From IMG/VR virus record IMGVR_UViG_3300046786_000349, positions 1 to 39,764 of that record: DNA of 39,764 bases; one strand, 5' to 3'. Of the stretch, positions 13,142 to 39,762 are shown piece after piece. Within the stretch, counting starts at the first letter, position 1. Each line of letters opens with the position of its first letter. This DNA comes from a virus. Lineage: Duplodnaviria; Caudoviricetes. The translations under genes and the position numbers were made by a program. Under the pieces are notes generated by a model, which had not been told where the DNA came from, searched no databases, and saw only the letters and a program-made list of their open reading frames with translations.

Positions 13142-13609
13142 ATGGCACTGATTCTTGAGGATATGTCGATCACCTTCACAATTGGTGATGCGTATACTCC
13201 GGGTACTGCACCAGTTTGGACTGCTGCGCCCACATATGCTTACCTTGGAGTAGCGCGATCAATTGAGATTACGGACGAGTTTGACTCTGTAAATGCTGGT
13301 GGAGCAACGGGTATCAAACGCCGTTATTTTAACCGCAACCAGATGATTCGGATTCGTGGTGTTGTCACGTATAACGCAAACAACGTCCTAAACATCCCGC
13401 AAGCAAAGTCTTTGACGACATACACACTTGGTCTTTACAACATTAAGATTACGGTGAAGAACAACTCAACGCTTACGCCATCGCGTAACTTTGAAGGTGT
13501 TATGCGACGTATGAGCATGTCTACCGACCAAGGTAATCCTCTTATTGAGGAAATGGAAATTGACCTCATGGCAGACTGGGGTGCTTACTCTGCCAGCCAA
13601 GGAGCATAA
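13142..13609 (+). CDS. Putative tail tube protein (paralog 1)
   Basis: AGGAG RBS, position, beta-rich 155 aa. Confidence 0.65.
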   Translation: MALILEDMSITFTIGDAYTPGTAPVWTAAPTYAYLGVARSIEITDEFDSVNAGGATGIKRRYFNRNQMIRIRGVVTYNANNVLNIPQAKSLTTYTLGLYNIKITVKNNSTLTPSRNFEGVMRRMSMSTDQGNPLIEEMEIDLMADWGAYSASQGA

Positions 13610-13611
13610 CT

Positions 13612-14082
13612 ATGGCATTGATTATGGAGGATATGTCGGTACAGATATGGGTGTCAGCACTTCCATATTCACCGACGGGAGCAGCTCCCACTTTTTCCGC
13701 CAATAGCCAAATCATCGGTGTGAGCCGGTCGGTTGAGTATAGCGACGAATTTGATTCCGTCAATGCTGGTGGTGCAGCAGGTATCAAGCGTCGCTATTTC
13801 AACAGGCAACAAATCGTTCGCTTGCGTATGGTAACCACGTACAACGCTGACAACGTCTCTAACTTGTCTGCGATTCGTGGTCTTACTGTCTATTCACCAG
13901 TGGGTTATGTCGGGTATGTGCGCATTAAGAACAACGGTGCACTCGCTACCTATCAGGACTTTGTTGGAGTTATTCGAAGTTTTCGAATGAGTACCGATCA
14001 AGGTAACCCACTGATTGAAGACATCGAGTTAGATGGCATGGCTGATACCACAGGTTGGACAGGTGCAATAACACCTCCATAA
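13612..14082 (+). CDS. Putative tail tube protein (paralog 2)
   Basis: Shares DEFDSVNAGGA.GIKRRYFNR and MSTDQGNPLIE with 13142-13609. Confidence 0.65.
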   Translation: MALIMEDMSVQIWVSALPYSPTGAAPTFSANSQIIGVSRSVEYSDEFDSVNAGGAAGIKRRYFNRQQIVRLRMVTTYNADNVSNLSAIRGLTVYSPVGYVGYVRIKNNGALATYQDFVGVIRSFRMSTDQGNPLIEDIELDGMADTTGWTGAITPP

Positions 14083-14100
14083 GTATAGTAAACTGACTAT

Positions 14101-18935: not shown

Positions 18936-19183
18936 TGAACATTCGAGCACAGATAGATATGCAGCAACAAGCTGCGCAACGTCAGTCGTTCTTGACAGGG
19001 CAGATTAATGGCACCGTTGGCTTCAACTCAGAGCGTGAATTAAATGCCAACGTAGCCACATTCCATGAACTTCCTGTGTACGTCACTCCTAACTGGAACT
19101 TTGTTCAGCAGGATGCTAACGGAAACTTTTACATCTTAGATGGTTACTCATATACGGGTGGCCCGGATGTACCTAGACCCTAA
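18935..19183 (+). CDS. Small tail-associated protein
   Basis: TAATG coupling on both sides. Confidence 0.6.
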   Translation: MNIRAQIDMQQQAAQRQSFLTGQINGTVGFNSERELNANVATFHELPVYVTPNWNFVQQDANGNFYILDGYSYTGGPDVPRP

Positions 19184-22110
19184 TGCCGTACTTAGATGTA
19201 AGTCGTACTGCTACTAGTGCTGCTGATATTTCTATCGCGTGGACATGGACTGTATATCCAACAAACTTAGTTCCATTTACATTACAAATTGGTAAGGTTG
19301 ACGGTTCAGTTGGTGGTCATATGGGATGGTCTGGCACTTGGTCGATGAGTATGACCAACACACCCAGAGCACGTCCAGGTAACCCGTGGACATATCAAAT
19401 ACTTTTGTCTGTAAACGTATCAAATGGTAATGGGCAAACAGCAAGCAATACGATTGTAGTTGCATCTGGCACTCCAACTGTTGATTACCTTGATATTTCT
19501 GGGACAATCACTGGTAGTTGGTCGGCAAGTGTAAACACAAACATCCTATGGAACATTAGTGAAACGGCATACTCTATAACTTCACCGCCAACGCAGTTTC
19601 CGCCATATACAACTTACGAAGTTTACGAAAAAGCTAAGCCTTCGGCAACGTGTACGGCAACGCTAACTCTTGCAGGAACGTCTACAACCGCCACAGGAAC
19701 AGTTGGATCCGGCGGCGGTGCAACTGCTACCCATGACTTTACGGCAGGTTTACAACAGACTTGTGAAGATACCGGGACAGCATCAGCATCAATTACCAAT
19801 ATAAAAGTAAATGGTCTTACACCGTATCAAGTTACACATTCACATTCATACGATGGACAAACTGCTGGAAACTGGTCAACAAGTGGAACATCGGATGCGA
19901 CCGAGCAAACTACAGTTAACCTAACGTCGTCAGCGCGTTTGGCGGCAGTTGCAAGTGTAAACACACGAATGCGTGCTTGGGATGGTGCTTATCCCAATAG
20001 TTTGACATTACGCGTTACCGGATTCGATTACGAAACTTTAGGATACCGAGATATTACAGGAACTGGTTCAATATCCGGTTCCGATAATTTATACAAGTAC
20101 TCGTTTGCATCAACAATAGTTACTTCTTTGGGGTCTAGCAATTTAACAACCGCACTTAACGGAGTGCCACCATGGATTAGCGCGGCAATTACAACAGCTT
20201 CACTTAATGCAAATGGTGACTCTACGAATGATACTCGTGTCTTGTTCAGAGGATGGCGTTTTAATGGTTGGTCTGTTGTAGAGAATTCTACACGTACAAT
20301 TTCTGGTACAGGTAACGATAGAACGTACACGCCATATGAAGGTATGTCTGGCTACCGCTACCTTGACGTACAGGTCAAAGCTCAGTCAGGCACAAGTGTT
20401 CCCGGCGAGATAACACTTCACGATTTCCATAACAACACAAAGACTTGGAATGTTACTGCTGCCACAACAAGTTATGCAACGGTGACGTTGGATTTATGTT
20501 CGCCTGATTCGTACTCACTTGGCAGTATGCCCGACAAGGACTCTAAAGATAATCCGTATCCTCGTAAGAATACGACCAGCACGTCTTTTGCGGGTTCTGA
20601 GAGCGTTGATAGCGCGTATTGGGGAGTTACATCATGCCGCAGGTTACGGGTGTCTAGCGGAGCCATTGACATTGGCACAACCACGCTTAAGTACAACAAC
20701 ACAGACTCGACATATGTTCCCGATACAGTAACATCTGCTATTGAGCGTAAGACAGCACAGATAGTTGCTGAAGCTGGCACGACTACTTACTTCTATGGCC
20801 GTCGTCTATGGCAACAAGATCGTGATGGACGAAACGAAGAAGAATCCGACGTCCACTGGCAGATGACTGTCGGTGGATCTACAGGTGTAACATCGTATGC
20901 AGTTACAATGCTGACCATTGCGCAGATGGCGTCTGAGGTCAATGCTAGTGACGACAGCGTTGTAAGACATCCTGGTTGGAGTATGACGCGATCAGTAGCA
21001 CAACCTGGTGGTGGAACCTGTGCAGCATCACAACCGCCACTGCGTGATTGCTACCTTAACGGCGATACAGGGCTAGCTACATGGTTATATGGCGGCGGCG
21101 CATTACTTACACCGAATGCAACCACAGGTACTGACTTTACCTATGCTCACAAAGTCACCGGCAATATTACAGCGCAGACCTTGTTTGACAAAATAAACGG
21201 CAACTTTCCGCCAGACCTATATGACCCATTCGACATAAACGGCGGTACAGATAGTGCTTTGTATCTTGGAGGCGTTTCGCTACTGCGCGGTATTGCTCAT
21301 GGTGGATTACTTGACACTGCGGGTGACATCGTAACGACTGGTACGGTTGACCTTATTCTAACTAGTGGAGCCTCAAACCGGGGTTCAGACTCCACAATAG
21401 ATGCGGAGGGTAGATACTTTACTGGTACTCCGTGGGGACTTGGTGAATCGAACCATCACGTTGACTACCTAACGAAAAGTATAAACCTGACACCGTTACA
21501 TACTAGTCATCGCCATAGGTCGTGGTTCCGTGACGTTTTGCAGGAAATATATTCTGCAATCGAGGCATTTAAAAACAAGGGATTCTTGATGCTGGGTAAA
21601 GCTACGAAGATCAACGTACGCTGGCAAGACAATCCTTTGACGGACAGATTGCCTGGCACTGTTTTAACTTCGGGCAACATCGTAAAATTACGCGATTCAG
21701 AAAACGTCGGTGACTATATCTTTATTCTGATTAAAAACACGACGACATTTACTCTAAGTTACACAACAGATAATGGCGAAACCAAAGGAGACTATCTCAC
21801 CGTGACTGCTGGTACAGCTGGATTTGAGTGCGACACAAACCGTGGTCTCCTCATCATTATTTATGATGATGGCACTACGGCAGCACCAGGCAACATAAAG
21901 TACAGGATAAGCCGAGATCAAGGGACGACGTGGACTACTGCCGCCAACTGCACAATCAACAGCGTGACGCCGCAGGTAGGACAAGTACTGGACACGAGCT
22001 ACGATCCACACCTTGGTGGAATGTTATATGCAATCTTTGACATCGGCGGAACGAAGAAGGTTTGTCGCTCGACAGACTTAGGAGTTACGTGGGAAGTAGT
22101 CCTGACATAA
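19183..22110 (+). CDS. Large T/S/G-rich tail protein with C-terminal Asp-box repeats
   Basis: 975 aa; TTDNGET, SRDQGTTWT and STDLGVTWE are BNR/Asp-box-like. Confidence 0.7.
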   Translation: MPYLDVSRTATSAADISIAWTWTVYPTNLVPFTLQIGKVDGSVGGHMGWSGTWSMSMTNTPRARPGNPWTYQILLSVNVSNGNGQTASNTIVVASGTPTVDYLDISGTITGSWSASVNTNILWNISETAYSITSPPTQFPPYTTYEVYEKAKPSATCTATLTLAGTSTTATGTVGSGGGATATHDFTAGLQQTCEDTGTASASITNIKVNGLTPYQVTHSHSYDGQTAGNWSTSGTSDATEQTTVNLTSSARLAAVASVNTRMRAWDGAYPNSLTLRVTGFDYETLGYRDITGTGSISGSDNLYKYSFASTIVTSLGSSNLTTALNGVPPWISAAITTASLNANGDSTNDTRVLFRGWRFNGWSVVENSTRTISGTGNDRTYTPYEGMSGYRYLDVQVKAQSGTSVPGEITLHDFHNNTKTWNVTAATTSYATVTLDLCSPDSYSLGSMPDKDSKDNPYPRKNTTSTSFAGSESVDSAYWGVTSCRRLRVSSGAIDIGTTTLKYNNTDSTYVPDTVTSAIERKTAQIVAEAGTTTYFYGRRLWQQDRDGRNEEESDVHWQMTVGGSTGVTSYAVTMLTIAQMASEVNASDDSVVRHPGWSMTRSVAQPGGGTCAASQPPLRDCYLNGDTGLATWLYGGGALLTPNATTGTDFTYAHKVTGNITAQTLFDKINGNFPPDLYDPFDINGGTDSALYLGGVSLLRGIAHGGLLDTAGDIVTTGTVDLILTSGASNRGSDSTIDAEGRYFTGTPWGLGESNHHVDYLTKSINLTPLHTSHRHRSWFRDVLQEIYSAIEAFKNKGFLMLGKATKINVRWQDNPLTDRLPGTVLTSGNIVKLRDSENVGDYIFILIKNTTTFTLSYTTDNGETKGDYLTVTAGTAGFECDTNRGLLIIIYDDGTTAAPGNIKYRISRDQGTTWTTAANCTINSVTPQVGQVLDTSYDPHLGGMLYAIFDIGGTKKVCRSTDLGVTWEVVLT

Positions 22111-22138
22111 AAAACCCCGTCTTAGGGGTGACGGGGTT
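22109..22138 (-). terminator. Intrinsic terminator, minus-strand polarity
   Basis: 9-bp stem AACCCCGTC/GACGGGGTT with A6 on its left, i.e. a U-tract for a minus-strand transcript. Confidence 0.75.
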
Positions 22139-22168
22139 CACTACTGGACTTTGGGGAAATTAAGTAGC
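22109..22168 (-). ncRNA. Candidate small RNA with anti-SD C-rich loops
   Basis: TATACT (22180-22175), 6 nt, then GCUACU-loop-AGUAGU and the terminator; loops contain UAAUUUCCCC and ACCCCUAA. Confidence 0.55.
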
Positions 22169-22192
22169 AGACATAGTATACACAGAAATGAC

Positions 22193-22432
22193 ATGAATAC
22201 CCAAAAGACGCAAACCCATAAAGAATTAACTCGACAACAAAAACGAGTATGGGCCGCCGTCACTCAGCTTGGTTTTCAAGGTGCATCGAAAGTGCTAAAG
22301 AAAAGTGAACGCACACTTGAATGGCACATGTACCGAATATCCAAAGTTCTTGGCACGAGCAACAGACACGAACAAGCAAAGTTGCTTGGGATTCGCATTA
22401 GGATAGAACGCATTAATATTGACAATGCGTGA
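22193..22432 (+). CDS. LuxR/GerE-type HTH protein
   Basis: LTRQQKRV...SERTLEWHMYRISKVLGTSNR; ATG 22193 preferred over TTG 22151. Confidence 0.7.
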   Translation: MNTQKTQTHKELTRQQKRVWAAVTQLGFQGASKVLKKSERTLEWHMYRISKVLGTSNRHEQAKLLGIRIRIERINIDNA

Positions 22433-22448
22433 TAGCCTGTGACATAAT
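22419..22448 (+). promoter_or_regulatory. Sigma70-type promoter of recombination/replication operon
   Basis: TTGACA-18-CATAAT with extended TGn. Confidence 0.65.
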
Positions 22449-22468
22449 GCCTCCATATGGAGGTTAGT

Positions 22469-23125
22469 ATGACGCGAACTAGTGAATCGCTAGACCAAAT
22501 CGCAGTGGCGATGGTCGGTATCCACAATGAACTACGGGCAATAATCAAGGATTCAAAGAATCCACACTTTAAGAGTAAGTATGCATCTTTGGATGTAATC
22601 CTTGATACCGTTCGCCCTATCTTGGTAAAGCACGGTTGTTTCTTGACGCAGACGCTTACGGATGGTTCAAGCCATAACGTCACAATGCGTCGCAAGCAAA
22701 ACAACGAAGAAACAGACCAAGTGATTGAGACATTTCAGGAAACATCGGTGTTCACCATCACCGCAGTATCACGATGCATTCATTTATCCGGTCAGTGGAT
22801 AGAATCATTCAGCATTGTCCCTGTCGCCAAGTTTGACGCACACGGTCTTGGAGCTGCGCAGACATACGCACGTCGTTTCAGCTTGGCGAGCCTGTTGGCT
22901 TTGGCTACAGATGAGGATGATGACGGCAATGCATCTACACACCAGCACGCTCCACGAATGGAAGCACCAAAGCAGGATATCAATATCCAGTTTTGGGCAG
23001 CAGTAAAGAGTAAGTACGGTGATGTTTCCGCTGATCGCAAGAAGGAAATCTATCGTGAGTTGTCAGGTGAGGAAACACCATCACCTGATGGGCTGGCTAG
23101 AGCATTGAAAGCTATAGGGGGTTGA
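22469..23125 (+). CDS. erf: ERF-family single-strand annealing protein
   Basis: KDSKNPHFKSKYASLD and GAAQTYARRFSL...DEDDDGN; GGAGG RBS before ATG 22469. Confidence 0.9.
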   Translation: MTRTSESLDQIAVAMVGIHNELRAIIKDSKNPHFKSKYASLDVILDTVRPILVKHGCFLTQTLTDGSSHNVTMRRKQNNEETDQVIETFQETSVFTITAVSRCIHLSGQWIESFSIVPVAKFDAHGLGAAQTYARRFSLASLLALATDEDDDGNASTHQHAPRMEAPKQDINIQFWAAVKSKYGDVSADRKKEIYRELSGEETPSPDGLARALKAIGG

Positions 23126-23126
23126 T

Positions 23127-23423
23127 ATGGCATTAGTACTCGTAAGTATCTTTTGTTCGTTGCTTGGATTCATCGTAGGTGGTTTTGCTTTGCTTCCACG
23201 GCGTATTGAAGATGACACTATCGTTCAATATGTGAATCAGCGTGGTGAGACAGTTTACGCAAAGACAGTTGGGCATCAGTACGAAGGTACAGACTTTGTA
23301 GCTGTGCAACGATGCGACGCTGAAGGTTTACCTATCGGCATTGTATTTGTATTGGACGCAGATCGTTTGACATGGAAGGACTCAAAGGGGAATAAATGGA
23401 CGAGCAAAGTATTCAACAAGTAG
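23127..23423 (+). CDS. Hypothetical membrane-anchored protein
   Basis: N-terminal hydrophobic helix; AGGGGG RBS. Confidence 0.6.
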   Translation: MALVLVSIFCSLLGFIVGGFALLPRRIEDDTIVQYVNQRGETVYAKTVGHQYEGTDFVAVQRCDAEGLPIGIVFVLDADRLTWKDSKGNKWTSKVFNK

Positions 23424-23944
23424 AAGTATCGGGGGATTGGCTAGTGGACGCAGAAACAGGCGAAATCATTGGTATGTCGCCAGACTCCAACCGTTACATA
23501 TCTCGTGTAGATAATGTTTACGACCTTGAAAAGTACATGGCAAACCTGATGGATATGGAGGCCGATCTTGCAGCTCGCAAGTTGGCACTCGCCGCCATCG
23601 TGGAGAACGCAAACAAACTGATCGGCAATATCCAAGCACGTATTGACTGGTACAAACTAAAGCACCAGGATGAAGTGCGTGCAGTCGCCGAAGGGAACCT
23701 TGCGCGAGGATCAAAGACATACCGATGTGTTTATGGCACGGTATCCTTCCGCAAGAAGAATCCTCGCATTGCAATTAAGGATGACGCACAGGCAATCGAG
23801 TGGGCGGAAGCAAACGTACCCGAAGCCGTTGTAGTCTCCAAGAAGGTGTTGGTCTCTAAGCTTGACATCGAGAACATTCCATCTGAGTCAGATGCGTTTG
23901 AGATTATCCCTGCTGAAGAAAGTATGGCGATCAAGACATTATGA
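23396..23944 (+). CDS. Gam-like / Gp157-like host-nuclease inhibitor
   Basis: VDAETGEI start, coiled coil, KTY...YGTVSFRK and AIEWAE; next to erf. Confidence 0.65.
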   Translation: MDEQSIQQVEVSGDWLVDAETGEIIGMSPDSNRYISRVDNVYDLEKYMANLMDMEADLAARKLALAAIVENANKLIGNIQARIDWYKLKHQDEVRAVAEGNLARGSKTYRCVYGTVSFRKKNPRIAIKDDAQAIEWAEANVPEAVVVSKKVLVSKLDIENIPSESDAFEIIPAEESMAIKTL

Positions 23945-24213
23945 ATTTGATGGAAATACGCACAGCGTTGCATGAAGAGTTTCCTACACATCAATCGTTT
24001 GTTCGTTGGAACCGTCCAGTAACAATGGACGGATTGACCATCATCAATGAGACTCCGAAGGATGCTCCGGATTACATCAGATGGATAAAGATTCTGTGGA
24101 AGGGAGACTACGTTACTAAAATTGAATTTGACCACGATATTCGTAAGTGGTCAGAAAACCGGAGGCATCTGGCCTTCCGACTACACAAGGAGCTAGAAAA
24201 GCACAATGCCTGA
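23941..24213 (+). CDS. Hypothetical protein
   Basis: Overlaps both neighbours in the operon. Confidence 0.6.
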   Translation: MNLMEIRTALHEEFPTHQSFVRWNRPVTMDGLTIINETPKDAPDYIRWIKILWKGDYVTKIEFDHDIRKWSENRRHLAFRLHKELEKHNA

Positions 24214-24565
24214 ATACGCATTTCACAAGCGCAAGCCAGAGCACAAAGGAACACGCATCAACATCGGTTATCGTTCCTTCATGCTTAGGTTTTCCAAGGA
24301 CGAGTTAGAGTTTATTCATGCTGCGGCTGAACGTCGCGGTTTGTATATCTCAGCACTCGCTAGGGAGGCAGCACAGCTTCTCATCGCGGGTCACGTACAA
24401 CCAGTCAAGAAGAGGGCAATCACCCGTAGGGAGGAGCGATTGCAGGTAAACCTGGGCGAGACAGTACATAGTCAACTGCAAGCATTCTGTGATAGCAAGA
24501 AACCACGATGGCTACTAACGACAGTACTCAGATCCGCGATGCTAGATATCGCACGAATGCGCTAA
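24206..24565 (+). CDS. Tandem ribbon-helix-helix DNA-binding protein
   Basis: FMLRFSKDELEFIHAAAERRGLYISALAREA and a second LQVNLGETVHSQL...TVLRSAM unit. Confidence 0.6.
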   Translation: MPEYAFHKRKPEHKGTRINIGYRSFMLRFSKDELEFIHAAAERRGLYISALAREAAQLLIAGHVQPVKKRAITRREERLQVNLGETVHSQLQAFCDSKKPRWLLTTVLRSAMLDIARMR

Positions 24566-24570
24566 AGACA

Positions 24571-24594
24571 GAACCCGGTGAAACACCCGGGTTC
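24571..24594 (+). promoter_or_regulatory. Inverted repeat upstream of replication gene
   Basis: GAACCCGG-8 nt-CCGGGTTC in the intergenic gap. Confidence 0.5.
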
Positions 24595-24615
24595 ATTATT
24601 CACAAAGGGGAAATT

Positions 24616-25437
24616 ATGTGGGTCAAATTGGATTGTAAGTTTCCAATGAACAAGGCTGTGCGTAGGTTATCTTCGGATGCATTCCGATGGTACATCTATG
24701 CGCTTTGTTATTGCGGTGAACACCTAACAGACGGACGACTGGACTCTATGGACGTGGAGACAATTACCGCCTGTATGCGCGTTCCTGAGTCAGCTTTTAC
24801 CGAAGTCATTGCAGCTGATTTAGTACGCGAAACGGACGCATGGCAATACGAAATTGTGGGTTATTCTGAGACCCAAACAAGCCGTGATTATGTTGAAAAA
24901 CGCAGGGCTGATGATCGTGCTCGAAAGGCCAATATAGTTGCACGTCGCAACAATTCCGCAGCGGAATCCGCAGTGGAATCCGTTGTGGAGTCCGCTGAAG
25001 ATTCCACGCGTATAGAATTAAGAATTAAGAAGAAGAATATAGATAAAGATAAAGATATATGTATAAGAGAATTAAATACTAATTCCTCGATTGCAGATGC
25101 AACCGAGAGTCTTACACCTAAACTTTGCGTATCTATGTTTGTGGATCAGTGGACAGCGAAGTACGGACATACACCTACAGGCTCGCTAGCCGCGCTAGGA
25201 AGCCACTTTAAGCGCGTTATTGGTAAAACACCCGATGAGACTATAAAGTCCTCTATTTCGGCGTTTTTTGGGCTATCCGATGCATGGGTTATAAGGAACG
25301 CACACAAGTCTACAATCCTGGTTTCCATGTGGGATTCATTGGTGACTGGAAGTGTGAATACACAGCCTATTCGGAGGACAACAAATCAGGACGTTGCACA
25401 ACAATTCCGTGACAGTATTTTGGAGCAGATTCAATGA
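24616..25437 (+). CDS. Replication initiator-like protein
   Basis: MWVKLD...LTDG N-terminus, R..DR.RK helix, low-complexity linker, helical C-domain; GGGG RBS favours ATG 24616. Confidence 0.7.
   Translation: MWVKLDCKFPMNKAVRRLSSDAFRWYIYALCYCGEHLTDGRLDSMDVETITACMRVPESAFTEVIAADLVRETDAWQYEIVGYSETQTSRDYVEKRRADDRARKANIVARRNNSAAESAVESVVESAEDSTRIELRIKKKNIDKDKDICIRELNTNSSIADATESLTPKLCVSMFVDQWTAKYGHTPTGSLAALGSHFKRVIGKTPDETIKSSISAFFGLSDAWVIRNAHKSTILVSMWDSLVTGSVNTQPIRRTTNQDVAQQFRDSILEQIQ
24951..25086. repeat. Putative replication origin (iteron-like repeats plus A-rich tract)
   Basis: About five degenerate 12-bp GGAATCCGCAGY-like repeats followed by AGAATTA/AGATAA repeats inside the initiator gene, as in lambdoid origins. 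Confidence 0.55.
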
Positions 25438-25841
25438 CACAGATAGCTACTCGCAGTGGTGTTGACCCTGAAGCAATCAAGCACGTTGTAGATCGCATTG
25501 TTCCGATTGTGGCGCGTTATCAAGGCGTCCCGATTGATGAGACGGATTGCAAGTTATACGCTCAGTCTTGTCGTTCATTGGCACAGCCATACAACCCAAA
25601 AGGTTTACATGAGCTTGAGATGCGCATACGTCGTGAGTGTAAGTTCCGACCGACACCCAAGGAAGTCGAAGAATGGGCGGACGAGATTGCAGGACGCCAC
25701 ATAGCGGCCAGTGAAGCTGCTGCACGTCGTGTAGTGACCGCACCGCTGACCATAGAAGCACATCCAGAAGAGACCGAGAGAGCACGCGAGAGATTCCGCC
25801 AGAAGTTCCGTGACTTGATGGCGGGGACGAGGATGCCATGA
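25434..25841 (+). CDS. Putative helicase loader/inhibitor-like protein
   Basis: Follows initiator; CKFRPTPKEV matches the F.PT..E motif. Confidence 0.5.
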   Translation: MTQIATRSGVDPEAIKHVVDRIVPIVARYQGVPIDETDCKLYAQSCRSLAQPYNPKGLHELEMRIRRECKFRPTPKEVEEWADEIAGRHIAASEAAARRVVTAPLTIEAHPEETERARERFRQKFRDLMAGTRMP

Positions 25842-26182
25842 AGTGGAAGGGTAGAAAGTTAAAGTACGATCCGTTAGCCGAGTACAGCGGATATCAGAAA
25901 GAAGCACGTAAGCGTGTACGTCTTTGCATTCAAGATGACCTGATGACGTATAAGGACGCCGGGATATTCCTTCGGATGAATCCAAAGAGTTTACGGGTAT
26001 ACAAACATCGTGGGCTGCTTACCGGGGAACGTATCGGCAAGATATTCCTGCTTCACGGGGCGTCTGTACGGGCATACATGCAAGCAAACGCTCCGGAAGA
26101 ACTACAGTGGTGGCTACAACAGAAACCTGACATCTTGACAGGATCTATCCTAGAGGAGATGAACAGTGAAAGCGACGTGTAA
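25838..26182 (+). CDS. Excisionase/MerR-like HTH protein
   Basis: LMTYKDAGIFLRMNPKSLRVYKHRGLLTGERIG. Confidence 0.65.
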   Translation: MKWKGRKLKYDPLAEYSGYQKEARKRVRLCIQDDLMTYKDAGIFLRMNPKSLRVYKHRGLLTGERIGKIFLLHGASVRAYMQANAPEELQWWLQQKPDILTGSILEEMNSESDV

Positions 26183-26600
26183 AAAGTGCGGAGCTGAAGG
26201 GATAGCGGAGCAAGCACAGCACAGCACGTATGTACTCACCTGCAAAGCATGTGGTGCTTTTGGGTTTGCAGGTAAACCACCGGCTAAGAGTAAGTACGGA
26301 AACCAGCGTGTGTATTCCGTGGAGCATGGAACGTTTGATTCCAAGATGGAATTCAAACGCTTTGGTGACTTGATGATGCTCCTCAAAGCTGGCCAGATTA
26401 CAGACCTAAGACGCCAGGTGAGATACAAGCTTGAACACGAGGGAATCTTCTACGGCATATACATTGCTGACTTCGTGTATCAGCAAGGCGATCAAACCAT
26501 TGTGGAAGATGTCAAAGGACATAAGACACAAGCGTATAGGACGAAAAAGAAATTGATGAAGTCGATACATGGTATTGACATCTTAGAGACATCGTCGTAA
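26166..26600 (+). CDS. DUF1064-like PD-(D/E)XK nuclease with N-terminal Zn ribbon
   Basis: SKYGN, FDSKME, YIADFVY, IVEDVKG; CKKC...CKAC. Confidence 0.85.
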   Translation: MKATCKKCGAEGIAEQAQHSTYVLTCKACGAFGFAGKPPAKSKYGNQRVYSVEHGTFDSKMEFKRFGDLMMLLKAGQITDLRRQVRYKLEHEGIFYGIYIADFVYQQGDQTIVEDVKGHKTQAYRTKKKLMKSIHGIDILETSS

Positions 26601-26642
26601 TATCTGCGTGTTAGCTTACCGCTACTGAAAAGGGGAAATAAT

Positions 26643-26891
26643 ATGGACATCGGTAATAGGTTTCAGATTTTAACTGAATTGAATTCAGTCACTGAATACG
26701 TGCAAGTCTGTTTGAGTTTAAAAGAAGCGTTGGAAACATTTTCCAAACATGTCACATGGTCGTGCACGACGACAGATGAAAGACACGGCCAAAGTGTTTA
26801 CGTTTATTCTCAAGAGTTAGGCGATTTTGTAATAGCCTACGATTCTGATGGTGTCAGAATGAGAAACAAGAAGAGGACGAACAGACAATGA
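26643..26891 (+). CDS. Hypothetical protein
   Basis: AGGGGAAAT RBS; ATGA overlap with next gene. Confidence 0.6.
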   Translation: MDIGNRFQILTELNSVTEYVQVCLSLKEALETFSKHVTWSCTTTDERHGQSVYVYSQELGDFVIAYDSDGVRMRNKKRTNRQ

Positions 26892-27166
26892 CGAACAATG
26901 AGTTGGCGACTGCACTTGGTGTTACACCAGCTGTCACGTCGCGATACGCAAACGGGAAAATTATGCCGTCAAAGAATCGCATTAAAGAGATTGCTGCGAT
27001 CACCGGCGTCACACCTATGCAGTGTGCAGCGATGTACTTAGTGGCGAACATCAAAGCACAGTACGGGAAAGAAGTATTGTTATTGGTTCAAATGTTTGGT
27101 TTGAATGATGTCGATATCGCAGCTGCTGCGCACATCATTACAAGGCACAAAGAGTTAGGGGAATAG
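26888..27166 (+). CDS. XRE/Cro-family HTH regulator
   Basis: MTNNELATALGVTPAVTSRYANGKIMPS...IAAITGV. Confidence 0.85.
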   Translation: MTNNELATALGVTPAVTSRYANGKIMPSKNRIKEIAAITGVTPMQCAAMYLVANIKAQYGKEVLLLVQMFGLNDVDIAAAAHIITRHKELGE

Positions 27167-27168
27167 AG

Positions 27169-27639
27169 ATGAAGAAGTATCTGGACGTTTGGGGAGAGTC
27201 GGGAAGTATTGCAGGAACACTTACGCACATCATCAAGGATCAGCGTGAGACAAACGACATGTTTGTACGCGATGCGCAGTTTACCTACCAGATTTCTGGT
27301 GCTGAGCATACATGCAGTGTCAATGCACGTTTCTACTTGGCCGGTAAGTATGAGCCAGCAAATGTGCTCGTAGAAGTCAACGTACACTTCACACAGGTAT
27401 CGGTAGACACGCATACAAACTACGGTACACGTGTCATGGACACAGTCAGCTTTACAGTCTCACGGGAAACAGACACTGACGTAGAACGCATCTGGATGTA
27501 CACCGCCGATGAGTACGATCAAAACTCACACATCTGGTGGAAGCTAACAGACGAGTACGAAGTGATTGGAAGTATCACCGGGCAGATCCAGAGATGGACT
27601 AAACAAGACGCTTACCATCTGCCAAAGTGGGCTGAGTAA
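27169..27639 (+). CDS. Hypothetical protein
   Basis: TTAGGGG RBS; 156 aa. Confidence 0.6.
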   Translation: MKKYLDVWGESGSIAGTLTHIIKDQRETNDMFVRDAQFTYQISGAEHTCSVNARFYLAGKYEPANVLVEVNVHFTQVSVDTHTNYGTRVMDTVSFTVSRETDTDVERIWMYTADEYDQNSHIWWKLTDEYEVIGSITGQIQRWTKQDAYHLPKWAE

Positions 27640-27801
27640 ACGACACACAAAGTATAGCAATAAGCTATCTCGGCGGGACGGACGGACGTATACGATGTGA
27701 GGGACGCTCATATCCTAATATCGAGCACAGATCGTGTACGTCCACTTCACATAACAAAAGTAAAAGCAGTCACACTTGTTGACGCAAAAGAGGTTATTGA
27801 C

Positions 27802-28290
27802 ATGGAAAAGTGTCCAAAGTGCGGAATTCCAGCAGTGCAGCTATATAACGGGACGTGTATGGAATGTATGTTATTCCAGACTCATCGTGACCCGGAACCT
27901 GTTACTTACGCAGAGAAGCTCAAGGCATTGCTTCAGAATGCGGGTACGGAGTCATTCTTTAGCGGGATGAGCAAGATGTGGTCAGGATCCATCCTGGTTC
28001 GATACTCCGCAATACCGTTTGGCCGTGCACCGATGTACATGTACTTTGATTGCGGACATCTAGTAGCACAAGCTGCGGACGATGACACAAAGCAATTGAA
28101 GGTACGCCACATCGGCATCACAGACATGGCTGCAGATGATTGGCATATTCTTCCGGAAGATATGGAAGCTGAGGCTCCTGTAGAATCGCGTCGAGATCGT
28201 GCCATTGATTTGATCACAAGATGTACGCCCAATGAATGGGCGCGAGTCTTTGCACATTGCGAGCACGCGGAGACCTGGATGCAGCAATAG
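27802..28290 (+). CDS. Zn-ribbon plus Tad2/DUF2829-like domain protein
   Basis: GAGG RBS; CPKC...CMEC, then F...M..M..G....R and TDMAADDWHI. Confidence 0.5.
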   Translation: MEKCPKCGIPAVQLYNGTCMECMLFQTHRDPEPVTYAEKLKALLQNAGTESFFSGMSKMWSGSILVRYSAIPFGRAPMYMYFDCGHLVAQAADDDTKQLKVRHIGITDMAADDWHILPEDMEAEAPVESRRDRAIDLITRCTPNEWARVFAHCEHAETWMQQ

Positions 28291-28735: not shown

Positions 28736-28780
28736 GTTGCAGGTATCCAGGTTGCAGGTATCCAGGTTGCAGGTATCCAG
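28736..28780. repeat. 15-bp tandem repeat, three copies
   Basis: GTTGCAGGTATCCAG x3, no spacers. Confidence 0.95.
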
Positions 28781-28939
28781 GTATCGCGGGCCGTATGGAT
28801 CGCCCGCAGGGATCAGAATTAGGCGTAGCATGTCAAGCTGCACGCGGGCATTTAGCCTATAGGGCCGCAAATTGTCGGTATACATGCAGCGAGTAAATCA
28901 CGCGGCATTTCTGTTAACAACCTTATTTTTTCCGTGCGC

Positions 28940-28969: not shown

Positions 28970-29013
28970 CATGCATCAATACCGCCACGGTATGAAATGG
29001 GGAAATTAGGAAA

Positions 29014-29781
29014 ATGAAAACTTTAACCACTGTTAACGCTGCGGGCCTGCTAGAAATGCAGCCACGCGATCGCGCTAGTATCTCGGATTTGGTCGCGGCC
29101 GTGGAAAAATCCGATAATGAAAAAACAGGGCCAGTATCGGCTACATGGGTTGCACAAATTAGCTGCCCGTTATCATGCCCGCACATGGGCGCGGGTTGCT
29201 ATGCCGAAAGTGGTATGGCCGCATTTACCACGAATAGACTTAATAGGGCCGCCGCAGACTACGCGACATTATCGCCCGCGGCCGTTGCAATGATTGAAGC
29301 TGCAGGGATCGACAAATTGACGGGTAAACGTGATTTAAGGCTGCATGTTGTGGGAGACGCGCGGACCGATAAATCAGCGCAAATTCTGGCCGCTGCTGCC
29401 GATCGTTATATTGCACGCGGTGCAGCCAAGGGTAAAAACGTACGTGTCTGGACATACACGCACGCCCGCGATACCAAGCGCGCATCATGGGGGCGTATCT
29501 CGGTTTTGCGATCATGCGAAACATTGACGCAGGTACGCGCCGCGCATGCTGCCGGGTATGCTGCTGCTATCGTGGTACCGGAACATGTACACGATCGCGC
29601 GTATAAGCTTGACGGCGAATATACCGGGATCCCATGCCCGGAACAAACCGGGCGGGCCGCCAATTGTCAAGCTTGCGGCCTATGCATGCGCGATCAAATG
29701 CTGCATGAAAATAAGCGAGTAATTATATTCGCGGCCCATGGGCAGGGTAAACGGAAAATGACACACTTAAAAACGGTGTAG
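29014..29781 (+). CDS. GP88-like Cys-rich protein (possible Fe-S / radical-SAM-like)
   Basis: NEKTG, CPLSCPHMGAGCYA, LRLHVVGD, WTYTH, CPEQ...CQACGLC. Confidence 0.6.
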   Translation: MKTLTTVNAAGLLEMQPRDRASISDLVAAVEKSDNEKTGPVSATWVAQISCPLSCPHMGAGCYAESGMAAFTTNRLNRAAADYATLSPAAVAMIEAAGIDKLTGKRDLRLHVVGDARTDKSAQILAAAADRYIARGAAKGKNVRVWTYTHARDTKRASWGRISVLRSCETLTQVRAAHAAGYAAAIVVPEHVHDRAYKLDGEYTGIPCPEQTGRAANCQACGLCMRDQMLHENKRVIIFAAHGQGKRKMTHLKTV

Positions 29782-29811
29782 CTATACCGGGGAAAATATA
29801 CACGCGTGATA

Positions 29812-29841: not shown

Positions 29842-29869
29842 TATACATCAAACGTTAGGGGATACGGAA

Positions 29870-29968
29870 ATGCTAATTGGACTTTGGATCGCTGCCGGGA
29901 TAGGCGCGGGCGTATTGATTTGGGGATTGTACGAAATTATCGTTAACGATGCTGTTATCGCAGGTTAA
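29870..29968 (+). CDS. 32-aa single-TM peptide
   Basis: TTAGGGG RBS; MLIGLWIAAGIGAGVLIWGLYEIIVNDAVIAG; below the ORF-track cutoff. Confidence 0.6.
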   Translation: MLIGLWIAAGIGAGVLIWGLYEIIVNDAVIAG

Positions 29969-29984
29969 GGGAGAAAACGGGGAA

Positions 29985-30164
29985 ATGGTTAATTACACGT
30001 TATCGGTATTTTGCGTGCTAAATGTTTTAGCATTTGCACATAATTTGTTTTACTACCGGCCGTTAAGAGCTGCAGCATATGCCAATGTATGGGCCGCTGC
30101 TATCACCGCCGCATTTATCGCATGCATGGTAATTCGTGCAGCGATCAATACTTTGTACCGCTAG
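29985..30164 (+). CDS. 59-aa hydrophobic protein
   Basis: Purine-rich leader before ATG 29985; two hydrophobic stretches. Confidence 0.55.
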   Translation: MVNYTLSVFCVLNVLAFAHNLFYYRPLRAAAYANVWAAAITAAFIACMVIRAAINTLYR

Positions 30165-30188
30165 AATATCACCGGGGAAATTAGGAAA

Positions 30189-30431
30189 ATGGAAAAAATA
30201 CACGTTACGCTACATCTAAAAAATGACTCGTTGCTGCAGCCCGCAAAATGCGCCTATGTCGACAATTGGGCCGATATTGATCGCCTAAAGTCTGGATTAA
30301 TTGACGCAGCTATAACAGGCCTAATTACAAATGACTTTATAACTGGCGCAACGATCACGGCTACACTAGCCGCGACATTTGACGTACGGAAATTTCGGTA
30401 TGACGGGATCAAATGGATTAAGGTGTATTAA
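30189..30431 (+). CDS. Hypothetical early protein
   Basis: Leader GGGGAAATTAGGAAAATG identical to that of 29014. Confidence 0.7.
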   Translation: MEKIHVTLHLKNDSLLQPAKCAYVDNWADIDRLKSGLIDAAITGLITNDFITGATITATLAATFDVRKFRYDGIKWIKVY

Positions 30432-30432
30432 T

Positions 30433-31463: not shown

Positions 31464-31516
31464 AGTCTAATTTATGTAAGGTTTGGTTGACGTTATTGAG
31501 TCAATGGGGAATATGT

Positions 31517-32827
31517 ATGTATAGGTTATTGTTAGGGGATTGTTTGGTTAGTATGGGTTTGTTGGAGGATAGTAGTGTAGATAGTGTTGTGTGTGATCCT
31601 CCGTATGGTTTGAGTTTCATGGGTAAGAAGTGGGACTATGATGTTCCTTCTGTTGATATATGGAGAGAGTGTTACCGGGTATTGAAGCCTGGTGGTTATT
31701 TGTTAGCTTTCGCTGGTACTCGGACTCAGCATCGCATGGCTGTGAATATCGAGGATGCTGGTTTTGAGATCCGGGACATGATCGCTTGGGTGTATGGGAG
31801 TAGTTTTCCTAAGTCCCATAATGTGTCTGTCTCGATTGATAAGTTACATGGTCATGGGAATCGGGGTAAGGCTATCCCTACTGCCAGTAGTTACCAGGCG
31901 TCTGATGTAGAGCAGGAGAATAAGCTTACTAGTAATCCTGTCCCGCCATATGAGGCTAAGTCAGATGATGCCAAGAAGTGGGAAGGCTGGGGTACAGCTT
32001 TGAAACCTTCGCTGGAGCCAATCACAGTAGCACGTAAACCACTAGTAGGTACTGTAGCCAATAATGTATTGGAGTACGGTACAGGTGGCATGAACATAGA
32101 TGCTTGCCGTGTACCTATGGATGCCGCTGATTACGAGTATTTATCTAAACAAGTAGATGCTATCCGTGATCGCGGTGGCACTATGGACAATAGTTGGTCT
32201 AACTGCTCCGACCTGTCTGGTGCTAACCCTGCTAACCCACTAGGTAGATGGCCAGCTAACTTCATCCATGATGGATCTCAAGAGGTACTCGACCTATTCC
32301 CTGATACACAACCTAGTAGATCTGGCGGGATGAGTTACAACAAAGATACTCAACACCTAAATGGTAAACAGCCTCATGCTCGTACCGGGCACGATGATTT
32401 AGGTGGATCCGCTGCACGCTATTTTTATTGTTCCAAGGCTAACAAGGCCGATCGCAATGAAGGCCTAGATGACTTTGAGGAAGACTACAATCGAGGTACT
32501 GGGACACATAACAACGGTAAGTCCAATACGCGTGTAGGTAATGCAGCCGAGCGTGCCGCTGGTATCACTCATGTAGAGTTGCAGAAAGTAAAGAATATTC
32601 ACCCTACGGTAAAACCTACCGACCTTATGCGTTACTTATGTCGTCTTGTAACACAGCCTGGGGGCACAGTACTGGATCCTTTCATGGGTTCCGGTACTAC
32701 TGGTAAAGCAGCTATGCTCGATGGCTTTGACTTTATTGGCTGCGAGATGGATGAGCAGTACTACAAGATCGCGGAAGCAAGAATAAAACACGCTTTGGAG
32801 AGTAACCATTTTCGTGATGTTACGTAA
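31517..32827 (+). CDS. DNA N6-adenine/N4-cytosine methyltransferase, beta class
   Basis: DPPY near N-terminus; HPTVKP and VLDPFMGSGTTG near C-terminus; GGGG RBS before ATG 31517. Confidence 0.93.
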   Translation: MYRLLLGDCLVSMGLLEDSSVDSVVCDPPYGLSFMGKKWDYDVPSVDIWRECYRVLKPGGYLLAFAGTRTQHRMAVNIEDAGFEIRDMIAWVYGSSFPKSHNVSVSIDKLHGHGNRGKAIPTASSYQASDVEQENKLTSNPVPPYEAKSDDAKKWEGWGTALKPSLEPITVARKPLVGTVANNVLEYGTGGMNIDACRVPMDAADYEYLSKQVDAIRDRGGTMDNSWSNCSDLSGANPANPLGRWPANFIHDGSQEVLDLFPDTQPSRSGGMSYNKDTQHLNGKQPHARTGHDDLGGSAARYFYCSKANKADRNEGLDDFEEDYNRGTGTHNNGKSNTRVGNAAERAAGITHVELQKVKNIHPTVKPTDLMRYLCRLVTQPGGTVLDPFMGSGTTGKAAMLDGFDFIGCEMDEQYYKIAEARIKHALESNHFRDVT

Positions 32828-35166: not shown

Positions 35167-35387
35167 TCACATGTCACCCAGTCCAGAGCCATGAGATCCG
35201 CTGATGACAATGTTGTAATGCCAGCAAATACTCTGTTAGATGCTCCATCAAAACGGTATGTACACATCCGTCCATCAACAAGTTGAATAAACCAACGCGC
35301 TTCAAAGCGCATAACCTTCCCACCAGCAAGGATTTCTTTATGTGCCCACAGATAGTCCCTGCGAACACGAGGTGTCTTCTCTATCAT
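35163..35387 (-). CDS. Tad2/DUF2829-like protein
   Basis: WAHKEILAGGKVMR ... LSSADLMALDWV; TTAGGGG RBS. Confidence 0.6.
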   Translation of the reverse strand: MIEKTPRVRRDYLWAHKEILAGGKVMRFEARWFIQLVDGRMCTYRFDGASNRVFAGITTLSSADLMALDWVTCE

Positions 35388-35472
35388 TCTGCCCCTAACT
35401 GCCGTGATAGCATCAAAATGCGTTACACTATTCTATAACACGTTGCAGTTGTATAGCAAGGAGAATGTTTTT

Positions 35473-37588: not shown

Positions 37589-38019
37589 CCTGTACTACCG
37601 AATCCTCCAAGGCGGATTCCTGCATCTAGGTTTGCAGTGCCTTTGTGTTCTAGGATGAGTGCTTGTGCCACACGCATTTTGTTAGTAATCGTAATGTCAG
37701 CAGATCCACAGTTAGTCAGTATGACTTTGATTTCATGACCGACATAGTCAGCGTCAACAATACCTGGTGCATTGAGAACATACACACCGTGATTGATGGC
37801 TAGTCCAGATCGTGAACAGATAGCAAGGAAGTAGTTTGTCGGAAAGTCGGATGTGAGAGCAACACCGACCGGAATCAATAGTCGGTCTCCAGGCTTCAAT
37901 AAAACGTCATTATCCAGTCGTGCTCTTAGGTCAAAACCTGCTGATAGTCCTGTCGCTTGCACGGGAAGATATTCTTGATCTTCAGTATTGATAAGAGTAA
38001 ACACTAGTCTTTTCCCCAC
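37585..38019 (-). CDS. dut: dUTPase (trimeric family)
   Basis: SAGFDL, RSGLA, GIVDADY, RVAQ, R.GGFGSTG. Confidence 0.95.
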   Translation of the reverse strand: MGKRLVFTLINTEDQEYLPVQATGLSAGFDLRARLDNDVLLKPGDRLLIPVGVALTSDFPTNYFLAICSRSGLAINHGVYVLNAPGIVDADYVGHEIKVILTNCGSADITITNKMRVAQALILEHKGTANLDAGIRLGGFGSTG

Positions 38020-38639
38020 ATGGCTTCGTGTATTGTTGGAAGCTGCTCTTCAATAATCAACTTGATGTCATTCGCAATGACTCGGTGCTCTGCTTGCGTG
38101 TCGTCCTGCGTTCTTACATCAACGTAGTGCAGCCAGTCACGAATGTTTCCTGCCATATACAACCGTGTGGATGAGGACATCGGTAACACCATGCGTGCAG
38201 TCTCAGTAGCAAAGCCATTTGCCAGTAAGCATTGATATGCGTCAAAGGCACGTACTACAGCGTCGTTAGCATCGTTGTATGCCTTCTCTTGACTCTCTGT
38301 AAGTTCATCTGGAAGGTCTAAGCTACTTTGACGGTTAGTCGCTCCAGCCATCCTTTGAAGTGGTAGGTAGATGGTCTGCGGAACAGGTGCATACCGTTGG
38401 CTGAACTCTTGGAACGAGAAGCTGCGATGTCTAAGAATCTGTGCACTGATTGCGCGAGTAGTATTGATCTCCACAACCATATGCGCCATCTCGAAGATAG
38501 ACCAATGCTTCTTACGAATGCAATAGCGCAGTAACTTCTCGTATTCACGATTCTCTTGGTTTGGACTACTCACACGAGCGCAGTATGCAATGTGTGCTTC
38601 TGCGTTTGGCGTGATAGTTACTAACTTAGCAAAATTCAT
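38004..38639 (-). CDS. thyX: Flavin-dependent thymidylate synthase
   Basis: HWSIFE, RHRSFSFQEFSQRY, ETARMVLP, TQAEHR. Confidence 0.96.
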   Translation of the reverse strand: MNFAKLVTITPNAEAHIAYCARVSSPNQENREYEKLLRYCIRKKHWSIFEMAHMVVEINTTRAISAQILRHRSFSFQEFSQRYAPVPQTIYLPLQRMAGATNRQSSLDLPDELTESQEKAYNDANDAVVRAFDAYQCLLANGFATETARMVLPMSSSTRLYMAGNIRDWLHYVDVRTQDDTQAEHRVIANDIKLIIEEQLPTIHEAMWGKD

Positions 38640-39762
38640 TAATTCTTTCCCCTATCCAGCGCATGACAGGTACAGCCATGGAATTACCGAGTGCCTTGTA
38701 TCTTGGTCCGTCTGGAGTCTCTGGCATGATGTCAGTGTATCCATCGGGGAAACCCTGGAGCCGTTCACATTCGGTCGGTGTTAGCCTTCGTACTGCCATG
38801 CCGTGCATTATCTGCTGGTCTTGTGTGGTTGATATTGTGTAGGCTTTTTCGTCCTGTCCCATGTAACCACTACCACCTGTTCCAGGCTTTGCTACTCCGC
38901 CGTTTGTACCGGTGTAATGCCCAACACCACGTATTTTGAATGCATGGGCTGGATGCGCTACACCGTGAACCCCGGTAGCGTTCAGCGTGTACATTGGACC
39001 ACCTACCGTGTATCCATCACCATTACCACCATTCATTGGTTGCCGTCCAATGGTGTTCTCTGCAAGGGCTATTGGTTCAACAACGATATCAACAGACCTG
39101 ATATCACCTACATCAAAACAATTAAGCGTGTTGGTTACACCATCAGGTACCCACGTTTCAAAGTCTTCTGCGCTCTGCGCTCTGCGTGACTTACGGAAGG
39201 TGTGCTGTACCAGCGGTGTATTACCACCACCTGTACCCCATCGTGCAGCTACAGTATGACTTGGGTCAACGGGTCCAGTTATCCTGGAATCATTAGGATG
39301 GTTTTCATACATCACTGGAATCAAGGTTTCTGTGTTTGGGTTGTACCTGCAACCAGTGCCTGTCGTAAGGCATTGGGCAGTGTCTTGCCCCGTTTTTCTG
39401 CCCTTCGGAGAATCCCCTCGCAAGCTTTCTGGCTCAAATAATACTTCTGCTGCACGTCTGCTGTCCCCTGAAAAATGTGCGACAACAAAGACTCTTCTAC
39501 GACGCTGGGGGACTCCAAAGTATTGAGCGTCAAGCACTCTGTAGGCGAACCCATACCCGATGTTCCCCAACGCCCCAAGGAAGGAACCAAAGTCCCGTCC
39601 TCCGCTGGATGACAAAACACCGGGGACGTTTTCCCAGATAACCCACTCTGGGCGGTAGTGGTCAACCATTGCAATGAAGGTGAGTGCAAGGTTTCCCCTT
39701 GGATCGTCAAGCCCTTTGCGGAGTCCGGCAACGCTGAAGGACTGGCAGGGAGTCCCTCCAAC
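38626..39762 (-). CDS. DNA cytosine-C5 methyltransferase (5'-truncated)
   Basis: Frame continues upstream of 39669 as VGGTPCQSFS (motif IV); ENV, QRRRR, RRLTPTECERLQGFP, ALGNSM. Confidence 0.93.
   Translation of the reverse strand, partial: VGGTPCQSFSVAGLRKGLDDPRGNLALTFIAMVDHYRPEWVIWENVPGVLSSSGGRDFGSFLGALGNIGYGFAYRVLDAQYFGVPQRRRRVFVVAHFSGDSRRAAEVLFEPESLRGDSPKGRKTGQDTAQCLTTGTGCRYNPNTETLIPVMYENHPNDSRITGPVDPSHTVAARWGTGGGNTPLVQHTFRKSRRAQSAEDFETWVPDGVTNTLNCFDVGDIRSVDIVVEPIALAENTIGRQPMNGGNGDGYTVGGPMYTLNATGVHGVAHPAHAFKIRGVGHYTGTNGGVAKPGTGGSGYMGQDEKAYTISTTQDQQIMHGMAVRRLTPTECERLQGFPDGYTDIMPETPDGPRYKALGNSMAVPVMRWIGERINEFC

Follow-up and report, generated by a model that had tools for sequence, protein, structure and literature searches.

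A conserved two-hairpin RNA element in a siphovirus genome predicted to pair with the GGGG-tagged ribosome-binding sites of non-structural genes

What is the function of a terminator of minus-strand polarity that lies between two plus-strand genes of a phage? The question is raised by an 82-nt gap in a siphovirus genome from IMG/VR (record IMGVR_UViG_3300046786_000349), all 39,764 nucleotides of which were analysed and are referred to here as the window. The gap separates the last tail gene from a gene for a 79-aa LuxR-like helix-turn-helix (HTH) protein (ATG at 22193). The element that occupies it is a conserved and uncatalogued small RNA (sRNA)-like gene, and the comparative support for a private ribosome-binding-site (RBS) code that goes with it is unusually good. 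We think that the element is probably the gene of a ~60-nt two-hairpin sRNA, predicted to pair in trans with the GGGG-tagged leaders of the phage's own non-structural genes and to block their translation together.

The original prediction had described a minus-strand terminator among plus-strand genes, preceded on its own strand by TATACT and, 6 nt further, by a ~60-nt sequence of two hairpins. All coordinates check: the box is present at 22180-22175 and the two-hairpin sequence at 22168-22109 (Table 1), and a terminator scan lists the stem for the minus strand only. The folding z-score of 22109-22167 is -5.1 for the minus strand and -2.0 for the plus strand. The U tract overlaps the stop codon of the last tail gene. 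Since the minus strand carries no coding gene over 11 kb upstream of the element, this terminator needs a local promoter. Loop 1 contains a weak internal 4-bp helix in the window, which leaves CCCCA alone open, while it is largely open in the relatives. The sequence offers what a trans-acting anti-RBS sRNA should have, i.e. a -10 box and a terminator of its own, no conserved open reading frame (ORF) and a conserved seed complementary to target RBSs, with the reservation that a -35 box is absent and that the seed is unpaired only in part in the window. A leader peptide in the same stretch was considered and rejected for lack of conservation; a plus-strand ATG occurs in some variants only and its frame closes after three codons.

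Relatives were collected by protein and pattern scans, and 14 contigs span the locus (8 from IMG/VR and 6 from metagenomes, some of them perhaps from the same genomes). The architecture of the element is kept in all 14, within surroundings of ~73-94% nucleotide identity where measured, and there are 7 distinct RNA sequences including that of the window. In the window and all 14 related loci the -10 box, which is a perfect TATAAT in two relatives, is placed exactly 6 nt before stem 1, and those 6 nt vary. Five base pairs of stem 1 are kept in the seven variants with only one G-C/G-U change, whereas loop 1 ranges from 17 to 20 nt, with variable flanks and a constant UUUCCCC. Stem 2 shows compensatory changes, four of its pair positions being altered on both sides among the seven variants, and loop 2 invariably holds CCCC, either as ACCCCUAA or as UUCCCC; the UAA part is confined to the window's subgroup and the other relatives have UUCCCC. 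A covariance model made from the variants of four distant relatives finds the window copy with 46 bits (E 1e-7) and one copy per genome. Two further contigs (L098 and L100) stop short of the locus, and the absence of a model match there carries no information. Two pattern scans of viral contigs for distant RNA homologues returned 27 and 29 loci, only 4 and 8 of which were relatives, and the rest, which lacked the two-hairpin architecture and showed no relatedness in DNA or genes either, was dropped.

The sequence that such an RNA could recognize is found at gene starts. The window contains four copies of GGGGAAATTA, all on the plus strand, one in the element (22153) and three at 24607, 28999 and 30174, where they stand 9, 15 and 15 nt before the ATGs of the replication initiator (Rep), the GP88-like gene and gene 30189. 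The exact complementarity of loop 1 to these three leaders, as originally claimed, is therefore confirmed. The partial matches at 23387, 26632, 29979, 31506 and thyX are equally present, and the dUTPase gene (38004, minus strand) adds a further one. The loop-2 complement TTAGGGG does precede 27169, 29870 and 35387, a fourth copy at 31532 being internal to the methylase gene, and AGGAG is indeed found at the starts of the capsid and both tail-tube genes. Outside the element, 5/5 copies of GGGGAAAT and 10/16 copies of GGGGAA are located at starts, where ~1.2% would be expected. Considering GGGG alone, it occurs 3-16 nt before 14 of the 30 non-structural starts but before none of the 25 structural ones (Fisher p=3.4e-5). 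Three of these starts (29870, 29985 and 38004) had been chosen by eye and the count was therefore redone with an RBS-blind ORF caller, which misses ORFs of less than 55 aa and includes one internal ATG; it gave 14/31 non-structural versus 0/23 structural starts. By either count the motif is enriched at starts. Ordinary Shine–Dalgarno (SD) motifs (GGAG, GAGG or AGGA) are not divided in this way (9/30 non-structural versus 8/25 structural starts), nor is the energy of anti-SD pairing (p=0.68), calculated with an assumed anti-SD motif that may differ from the 16S tail of the actual host.

The same division is seen in four relatives, in which GGGG precedes 7/16, 8/22, 8/23 and 9/21 orthologous non-structural starts versus 1/17, 0/24, 1/25 and 1/25 structural ones. 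At Gam, Rep, 27169, the GP88-like gene and 30189 it is kept in all five genomes. The tag persists while its distance to the ATG varies, its first G being 6 to 15 nt from the start, and at the GP88-like gene and 30189 it is located upstream of a separate AGGA; for both reasons we take it to be more than an SD sequence. A control is provided by the contig of relative G001, which is chimeric: its first 30 kb (1-30400) represent a second, distant siphovirus of higher GC content. This second phage has tail-fibre DNA (84% over 398 nt) and also an exonuclease gene in common with the phage studied here, but no match to the covariance model and no tag at any of its 21 non-structural starts. If it shares the host, GGGG would not simply reflect the SD preference of that host.

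An asymmetric repeat upstream of genes might also be read as DNA. GGGGAAATTA would then be a site for the HTH protein, comparable to mycobacteriophage stoperators, with the copy at 22153 serving as an autoregulatory operator and the hairpin as a plain terminator against antisense transcription into the tail genes. Such a role would agree with the orientation of every copy with transcription, with the presence of one copy upstream of the HTH gene and with a few tag-like sites away from starts, e.g. at 29789 upstream of a promoter and in a conserved element near 28617. It leaves unexplained, however, stem 1, the fixed spacing of the -10 box, the second CCCC loop and the G-U-compatible differences between element and targets. 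Moreover, the spacing between motif and HTH start differs by ~6 nt among relatives, and in relative G002 the element and the Rep leader have changed together although the HTH protein is still 87% identical. We consider an operator of this kind quite unlikely.

A different reader of the tag could be a translational repressor of the RegA or CsrA type, in which case the functional RNA would be the plus strand, acting as a decoy with GGGG in its loops. The plus strand can indeed form two hairpins of this sort, and it might be covered by read-through from late transcription. Against this, the minus strand is the stabler one by 2.6-7.4 kcal/mol in all 7 variants, the plus strand has no U tract, and G-U pairs at 6 stem positions become A-C mismatches on it, although the pairs were defined from the minus-strand fold so that this strand test is partly circular. 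No RNA-binding-protein family was found in the 52 ORFs scanned. A protein decoy therefore seems very improbable to us.

Returning to an sRNA that pairs with the tagged leaders, a genome-wide helix scan with loop 1 placed the GP88-like leader first, that of 30189 second and that of Rep fourth. Seven of the 15 best loop-1 sites are at starts, compared with a mean of 1.3 for shuffled loops, 5/300 of which reached seven. When intramolecular structure was taken into account by cofolding, the top four of 55 starts were all tagged (Rep, GP88-like, 26643 and 30189), and the duplex with Rep spans the AUG of the initiator gene, at which the PHROG replication-initiator profiles begin (24616). In a test that shuffled only the bases around an unchanged C run, the natural flanks gave a better fit to the four best tagged starts, the shuffled ones being as good in 7/2000 cases for the window, 4/2000 for G001 and 42/2000 for G004.

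If the pairing matters, RNA and target should change together. G002 has the most diverged loop 1, and its RNA binds its own Rep leader at -16.0 kcal/mol, compared with -7.9 to -8.9 kcal/mol for five other Rep leaders; the gain stems from differences of the G002 leader, in the tag extension and immediately before it, that match the RNA. With row and column effects removed, cognate pairing exceeded permuted pairing for the Rep duplex (p 0.017), the GGGGA starts (0.017) and the cofold (0.026), values that ignore relatedness, the six types corresponding to about two or three independent lineages. Loop 2 gives a similar picture: TAGGGG, the complement of the A/B-type loop CCCCUA, is found before 5 and 7 starts in the two genomes with that loop and before 1 (partial genome), 0 and 2 starts in the three genomes with the UUCCCC loop.

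Rep is the top cofold target and the sole one with clear multi-base covariation. This raises the question whether the RNA, though real, is essentially an antisense RNA that controls replication through the Rep initiator. The other GGGG leaders would then be weak SD sequences, or would descend from a single ancestral leader, and the RNA would pair with them by chance if it does so at all. Taken together with the hairpin before it, the Rep leader is similar to the plus strand of the element (a weak RNA-model match, 17.9 bits, L050), and the succession of RHH gene, hairpin and rep gene recalls plasmid copy-control loci. On the other hand, the best helices are those at GP88 and 30189, where GGGG is outside the SD register; the tag is kept in 5/5 genomes at Gam, 27169, GP88 and 30189 and also occurs on non-orthologous early genes; and the TAGGGG counts track the type of loop 2. 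A restriction to Rep is thus unlikely, if the least so among the alternatives weighed here. The hairpin in question (24571-24594) is GC-rich, lies between the RHH/NikA-like gene and the Rep RBS and is found in 8/8 loci with differing loops. The reverse complement of hairpin plus Rep RBS resembles the sRNA, hinting that the two may have a common origin or that the hairpin might be a second pairing region. A possible cis-antisense promoter inside Rep (TACAAT) was rejected, as it is not kept in 4/8 loci.

How would the proposed sRNA act on its targets? On the minus strand the sequence provides a -10 box whose spacing is constant, followed by two hairpins and a U tract, and transcription from this promoter would give a stand-alone RNA. 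According to the computed duplexes, CCCC would nucleate on GGGG; loop 1 could then extend over AAAUUA(GG/UG) into duplexes of 10-14 bp that cover both RBS and AUG at Rep, GP88-like, 30189 and 26643, and loop 2 would contribute pairing with TAGGGG and GGGGAA leaders. By analogy with 6C RNA and the Burkholderia double-hairpin RNAs this should occlude the ribosome, and because of the G-C pairs a chaperone is probably unneeded. In the last and weakest step the RNA would build up later in infection, perhaps via the divergent HTH protein, so that replication and early functions are shut down and the untagged virion genes escape. The HTH protein, 82-95% identical in the relatives, is a possible regulator of the sRNA promoter; its label comes from a Pfam GerE match that is weak and does not reach the cut-off (E 0.049), and also from the JGI names of homologues.

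A multi-target switch for either the early-to-late transition or dormancy had been proposed at the outset. The switch as such is partly supported, by the anatomy, the strand, the early/late division of the tag and the loop-RBS complementarity, but as to timing dormancy is less likely than an early-to-late transition in which replication and early functions are shut off, because tyrosine integrase, resolvase and ParA were found in none of the five genomes searched, two of which have terminal repeats. The opposite timing would make the RNA an immunity or dormancy repressor, produced in a carrier state at the position where temperate siphoviruses have cI. Its divergent arrangement with the HTH gene at the head of the early operon and the replication initiator as the best target would fit such a role. 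RNA-based immunity is known in P4 and P1. Besides the missing genes, the promoter of the element resembles -35-less sites in front of late genes, a likeness that is a lead only since this pattern also matches inside genes, and we regard dormancy as an improbable use of the RNA. The sites concerned are conserved -10-like sequences without a -35 box, placed ahead of the portal gene, of the tail chaperone gene and of the start of the late operon (1173-1180 and 14082-14089 in the window, 24420 in G002, 9810 in G003 and 28451 in G004), whereas early promoters read TTGAC-N18-TATAAT-like.

It is also conceivable that the RNA acts mainly on others, either on G-rich host RBSs (host shut-off) or on a superinfecting related phage, with GGGG being only a weak SD sequence in the phage's own early genes. 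Two studies describe C-rich RNAs with two hairpins that base-pair to numerous RBSs and retard growth on overexpression (PMC5688073; PMC6486639). There is a weak Rfam resemblance to one of these families (RF02278), and each variant could pair with the tags of sister phages. Selection of this type would yield neither a strict division between own early and late genes nor cognate covariation with Rep, and foreign targets as the main ones thus appear rather unlikely.

In its boldest form the predicted pairing with own non-structural leaders can be extended to a more general proposal, which we put forward tentatively and with less confidence than the sRNA gene itself. GGGG plus a type-specific extension may be a private address tag in the RBSs of replication and host-takeover genes, and a single 60-nt RNA would then be a protein-free master switch of the whole early programme, placed where temperate phages keep their repressor gene, with tag and RNA co-evolving between sister phages as lock and key.

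A number of observations weigh against the proposed control of tagged leaders by the sRNA. No transcript was seen, and the available RNA contigs do not reach the element: over 19000-31500, public run X1 supplied 9 pieces, none over the element, and X2 supplied none; X1 contained 7% of the words of 21500-23500, and such contigs are unable to show a 60-nt RNA. A consensus -35 box is absent, and the sigma-70 scan therefore left the promoter uncalled. Stem 1 has no double-sided covariation, that of stem 2 proves a terminator only, and in two variants a pair at the end of a stem is replaced by C-A or C-C. While the ranking of sites did beat shuffled loops, shuffles that keep CCCC average 3.6 sites at starts and match the observed seven in 39/300 cases, which attributes most of the start enrichment to CCCC-GGGG alone; 8/15 of the best loop-1 sites and 11/15 of the best loop-2 sites are off starts. 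The expected loop/RBS covariation is indicated by the G002 Rep leader and the TAGGGG counts, but it comes from only 2-3 independent lineages and flank specificity is not significant in two of five genomes (232/2000 in G003 and 176/2000 in G002). The raw cross-genome duplex matrix has no clean cognate preference, loop length dominating and several B-type targets preferring C-type loops. In the window ERF (which opens the early operon), RHH, the Holliday-junction resolvase and Xre are untagged; several of these untagged early genes overlap the gene in front of them and might be coupled to it in translation. Finally, the common host of the second phage in G001 is deduced from tail-fibre similarity alone.

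The coordinates of the element, of its predicted targets and of further tagged leaders are collected in Table 1.

Table 1. Element, divergent gene, predicted target leaders and further tagged leaders in the window.
Feature	Position	Strand	Remarks
Predicted -10 box TATACT	22175..22180	-	preceded by TGTG
Predicted ~60-nt sRNA	22109..22168	-	from folding, conservation and covariance model; putative +1 at 22168
Hairpin 1	22140..22168	-	stem GCUACU/AGUAGU (22168-22163 with 22145-22140); loop 1 (22162-22146) carries UAAUUUCCCC
Hairpin 2	22109..22139	-	intrinsic-terminator-like stem 22139-22112, loop 2 ACCCCUAA (22129-22122), then U tract
Divergent 79-aa LuxR/GerE-like HTH gene	22193..22432	+	no SD; start 12 nt from -10 box
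Replication initiator (Rep) RBS and AUG, start 24616	24607..24618	+	predicted main target; top cofold of 55 starts, -13.9 kcal/mol
GP88/DUF7227-like leader (Pfam)	28999..29016	+	12-bp match with one G-U; best genome-wide loop-1 helix; cofold -13.5
Gene 30189 leader	30174..30191	+	second-best genome-wide helix; cofold -12.5
Gene 26643 leader	26632..26645	+	cofold -12.5
Mu Gam-like gene leader	23387..23398	+	cofold -10.6; GGGG in 5/5 genomes
Loop-2 target, TTAGGGG before gene 27169	27155..27171	+	GGGG in 5/5 genomes, ATG distance 11 to 15 nt
Loop-2 target before small ORF 29870	29855..29872	+	predicted, TTAGGGG
GGGG tag before small ORF 29985	29979..29987	+	
GGGG tag before DNA methyltransferase, start 31517	31506..31519	+	
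TTAGGGG before gene 35387	35385..35398	-	
GGGG tag before dUTPase, GTG at 38004	38002..38017	-	
GGGG tag before thyX	38637..38654	-	
G-run before gene 23127	23115..23129	+	not kept in relatives

Among known RNAs, the closest in general design are bacterial. The element matches no Rfam family at the gathering score; the best one, RF02278, reaches 24.2 bits versus 50 (E 0.013), mostly via the terminator, and the element agrees with the description of this family in being ~60 nt long with two hairpins and pyrimidine-rich unpaired anti-RBS stretches. The Burkholderia sRNAs ncS03, ncS05, ncS27 and ncS62 (Betaproteobacteria toxic, RF02278) are 57-67 nt long, have a terminator as second hairpin and are predicted to have multiple targets at starts (PMC5688073). 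They share with the element the size, the two hairpins and the pyrimidine-rich stretches complementary to RBSs, but they are chromosomal, CU-rich against the general SD sequence and directed at metabolic targets, whereas the element is phage-borne and has CCCC against the tag of its own non-structural genes. The 6C RNA (B11) of Actinobacteria likewise pairs by C-rich loops with numerous mRNAs at their G-rich RBSs, that of the replication gene dnaB among them, and needs no chaperone for this, as shown by reporters and mutants (PMC6486639). It is host-encoded with six-C loops and its targets do not carry a genome-private tag, while the loops of the element have 4-5 C, and the Rfam model of 6C RNA gave no match at the gathering score or at E up to 10. 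In the way it would work the element is like the Burkholderia double-hairpin RNAs and 6C RNA; it is a member of neither.

In staphylococcal RsaE, too, C-rich hairpin loops pair with SD regions. The same has been described for RNAIII, also from staphylococci (PMC6486639). Both are host regulators of another size and fold, and the element has no Rfam match to either of them. The c4 RNA of P1/P7 and the CI RNA of P4 are processed RNAs that act on one operon. The C4 clan gave only a terminator match to the element (c4-2, 14.3 bits versus 41). P22 sar, lambda OOP and aQ are cis-encoded antisense RNAs with one gene each (PMC12197685), and PLE SviR acts in trans on several targets (bioRxiv 10.1101/2022.04.08.487710). 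The trans RNAs described in these two sources are directed at the host or a helper. What the element would have in common with these phage and satellite antisense RNAs is the control of developmental genes by base pairing.

For the tag itself the nearest precedent comes from Cluster K mycobacteriophages, in which the start-associated sequence (SAS) is an asymmetric motif that recurs at the RBS of non-structural genes only, conserved beyond 16S pairing, for which an RNA or a protein reader was left open (PMC3203893). The GGGG tag is also an asymmetric repeat at the starts of non-structural genes only, with a sequence unlike that of the Cluster K SAS. The latter is 13 bp long, contains AGGAG and belongs to temperate actinophages, whereas the genome with the GGGG tag also carries a candidate RNA complementary to it. 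In the largely open-access literature searched, no report was found of the element RNA or of any phage sRNA that fits an RBS tag common to a dozen of the phage's own genes. In the text reviewed, phage RNA regulators mostly control single genes or host mRNAs (PMC12197685), and SAS-type motifs are not known to have had an identified reader since 2011 (PMC3203893). Here the tag occurs together with an RNA gene that matches it, with pairs that covary in nature and with a control phage devoid of tags, which makes the question testable without the host. If true, our interpretation would mean regulon-scale RNA control of phage development and would offer a compact RNA/RBS pair for synthetic multi-gene repression; in the bolder form given above it could also provide start-associated sequences of phages at large with the reader that they lack.

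The capsid protein encoded in the window is 30.5% identical to the best phage match, two scans of GTDB genomes gave no confirmed relative, and homologue and Atlas searches provided no host name. Profile searches identified the structural run up to 22110 as terminase, portal, protease, HK97 capsid and tail genes. The early/middle region that follows the tail genes encodes HTH, ERF, Gam, RHH, the replication initiator, a Holliday-junction resolvase, Xre, the GP88-like protein and the methylase, and a block of minus-strand genes holds dUTPase and thyX. Circular relatives have ~3.7 kb extra between methyltransferase and terminase (SSB, small terminase subunit and a probable lysis gene), and for this reason the window is probably incomplete despite an estimated completeness of 100%.

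Several further features were noted along the window. The tail-tube genes form a tandem pair of paralogues with 50% identity (13142-14082), and a cassette of small ORFs and tail fibre is present in duplicate (7243-12336). A minus-strand sequence at 33500-33580 is tRNA-like with acceptor-like ends and an odd anticodon arm; its folding z-score is -0.3 and it is called neither by ARAGORN nor by Rfam. At 28617-28665, beside short tandem repeats, a non-coding element of the form CCGCGA-G(G)GAAATTATC...CTCTCGCG is kept in relatives within otherwise divergent DNA, its core being different in B-type loci; an origin, a packaging site or an RNA sponge are possible functions. The capsid gene is followed by a hairpin (5339-5360) with GGGGAG/CTCCCC arms, in which GGGG is locked in the stem. 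Downstream of the methyltransferase, 32850-32886 matches the Rfam abiF RNA with 45.8 bits, compared with a gathering score of 37.

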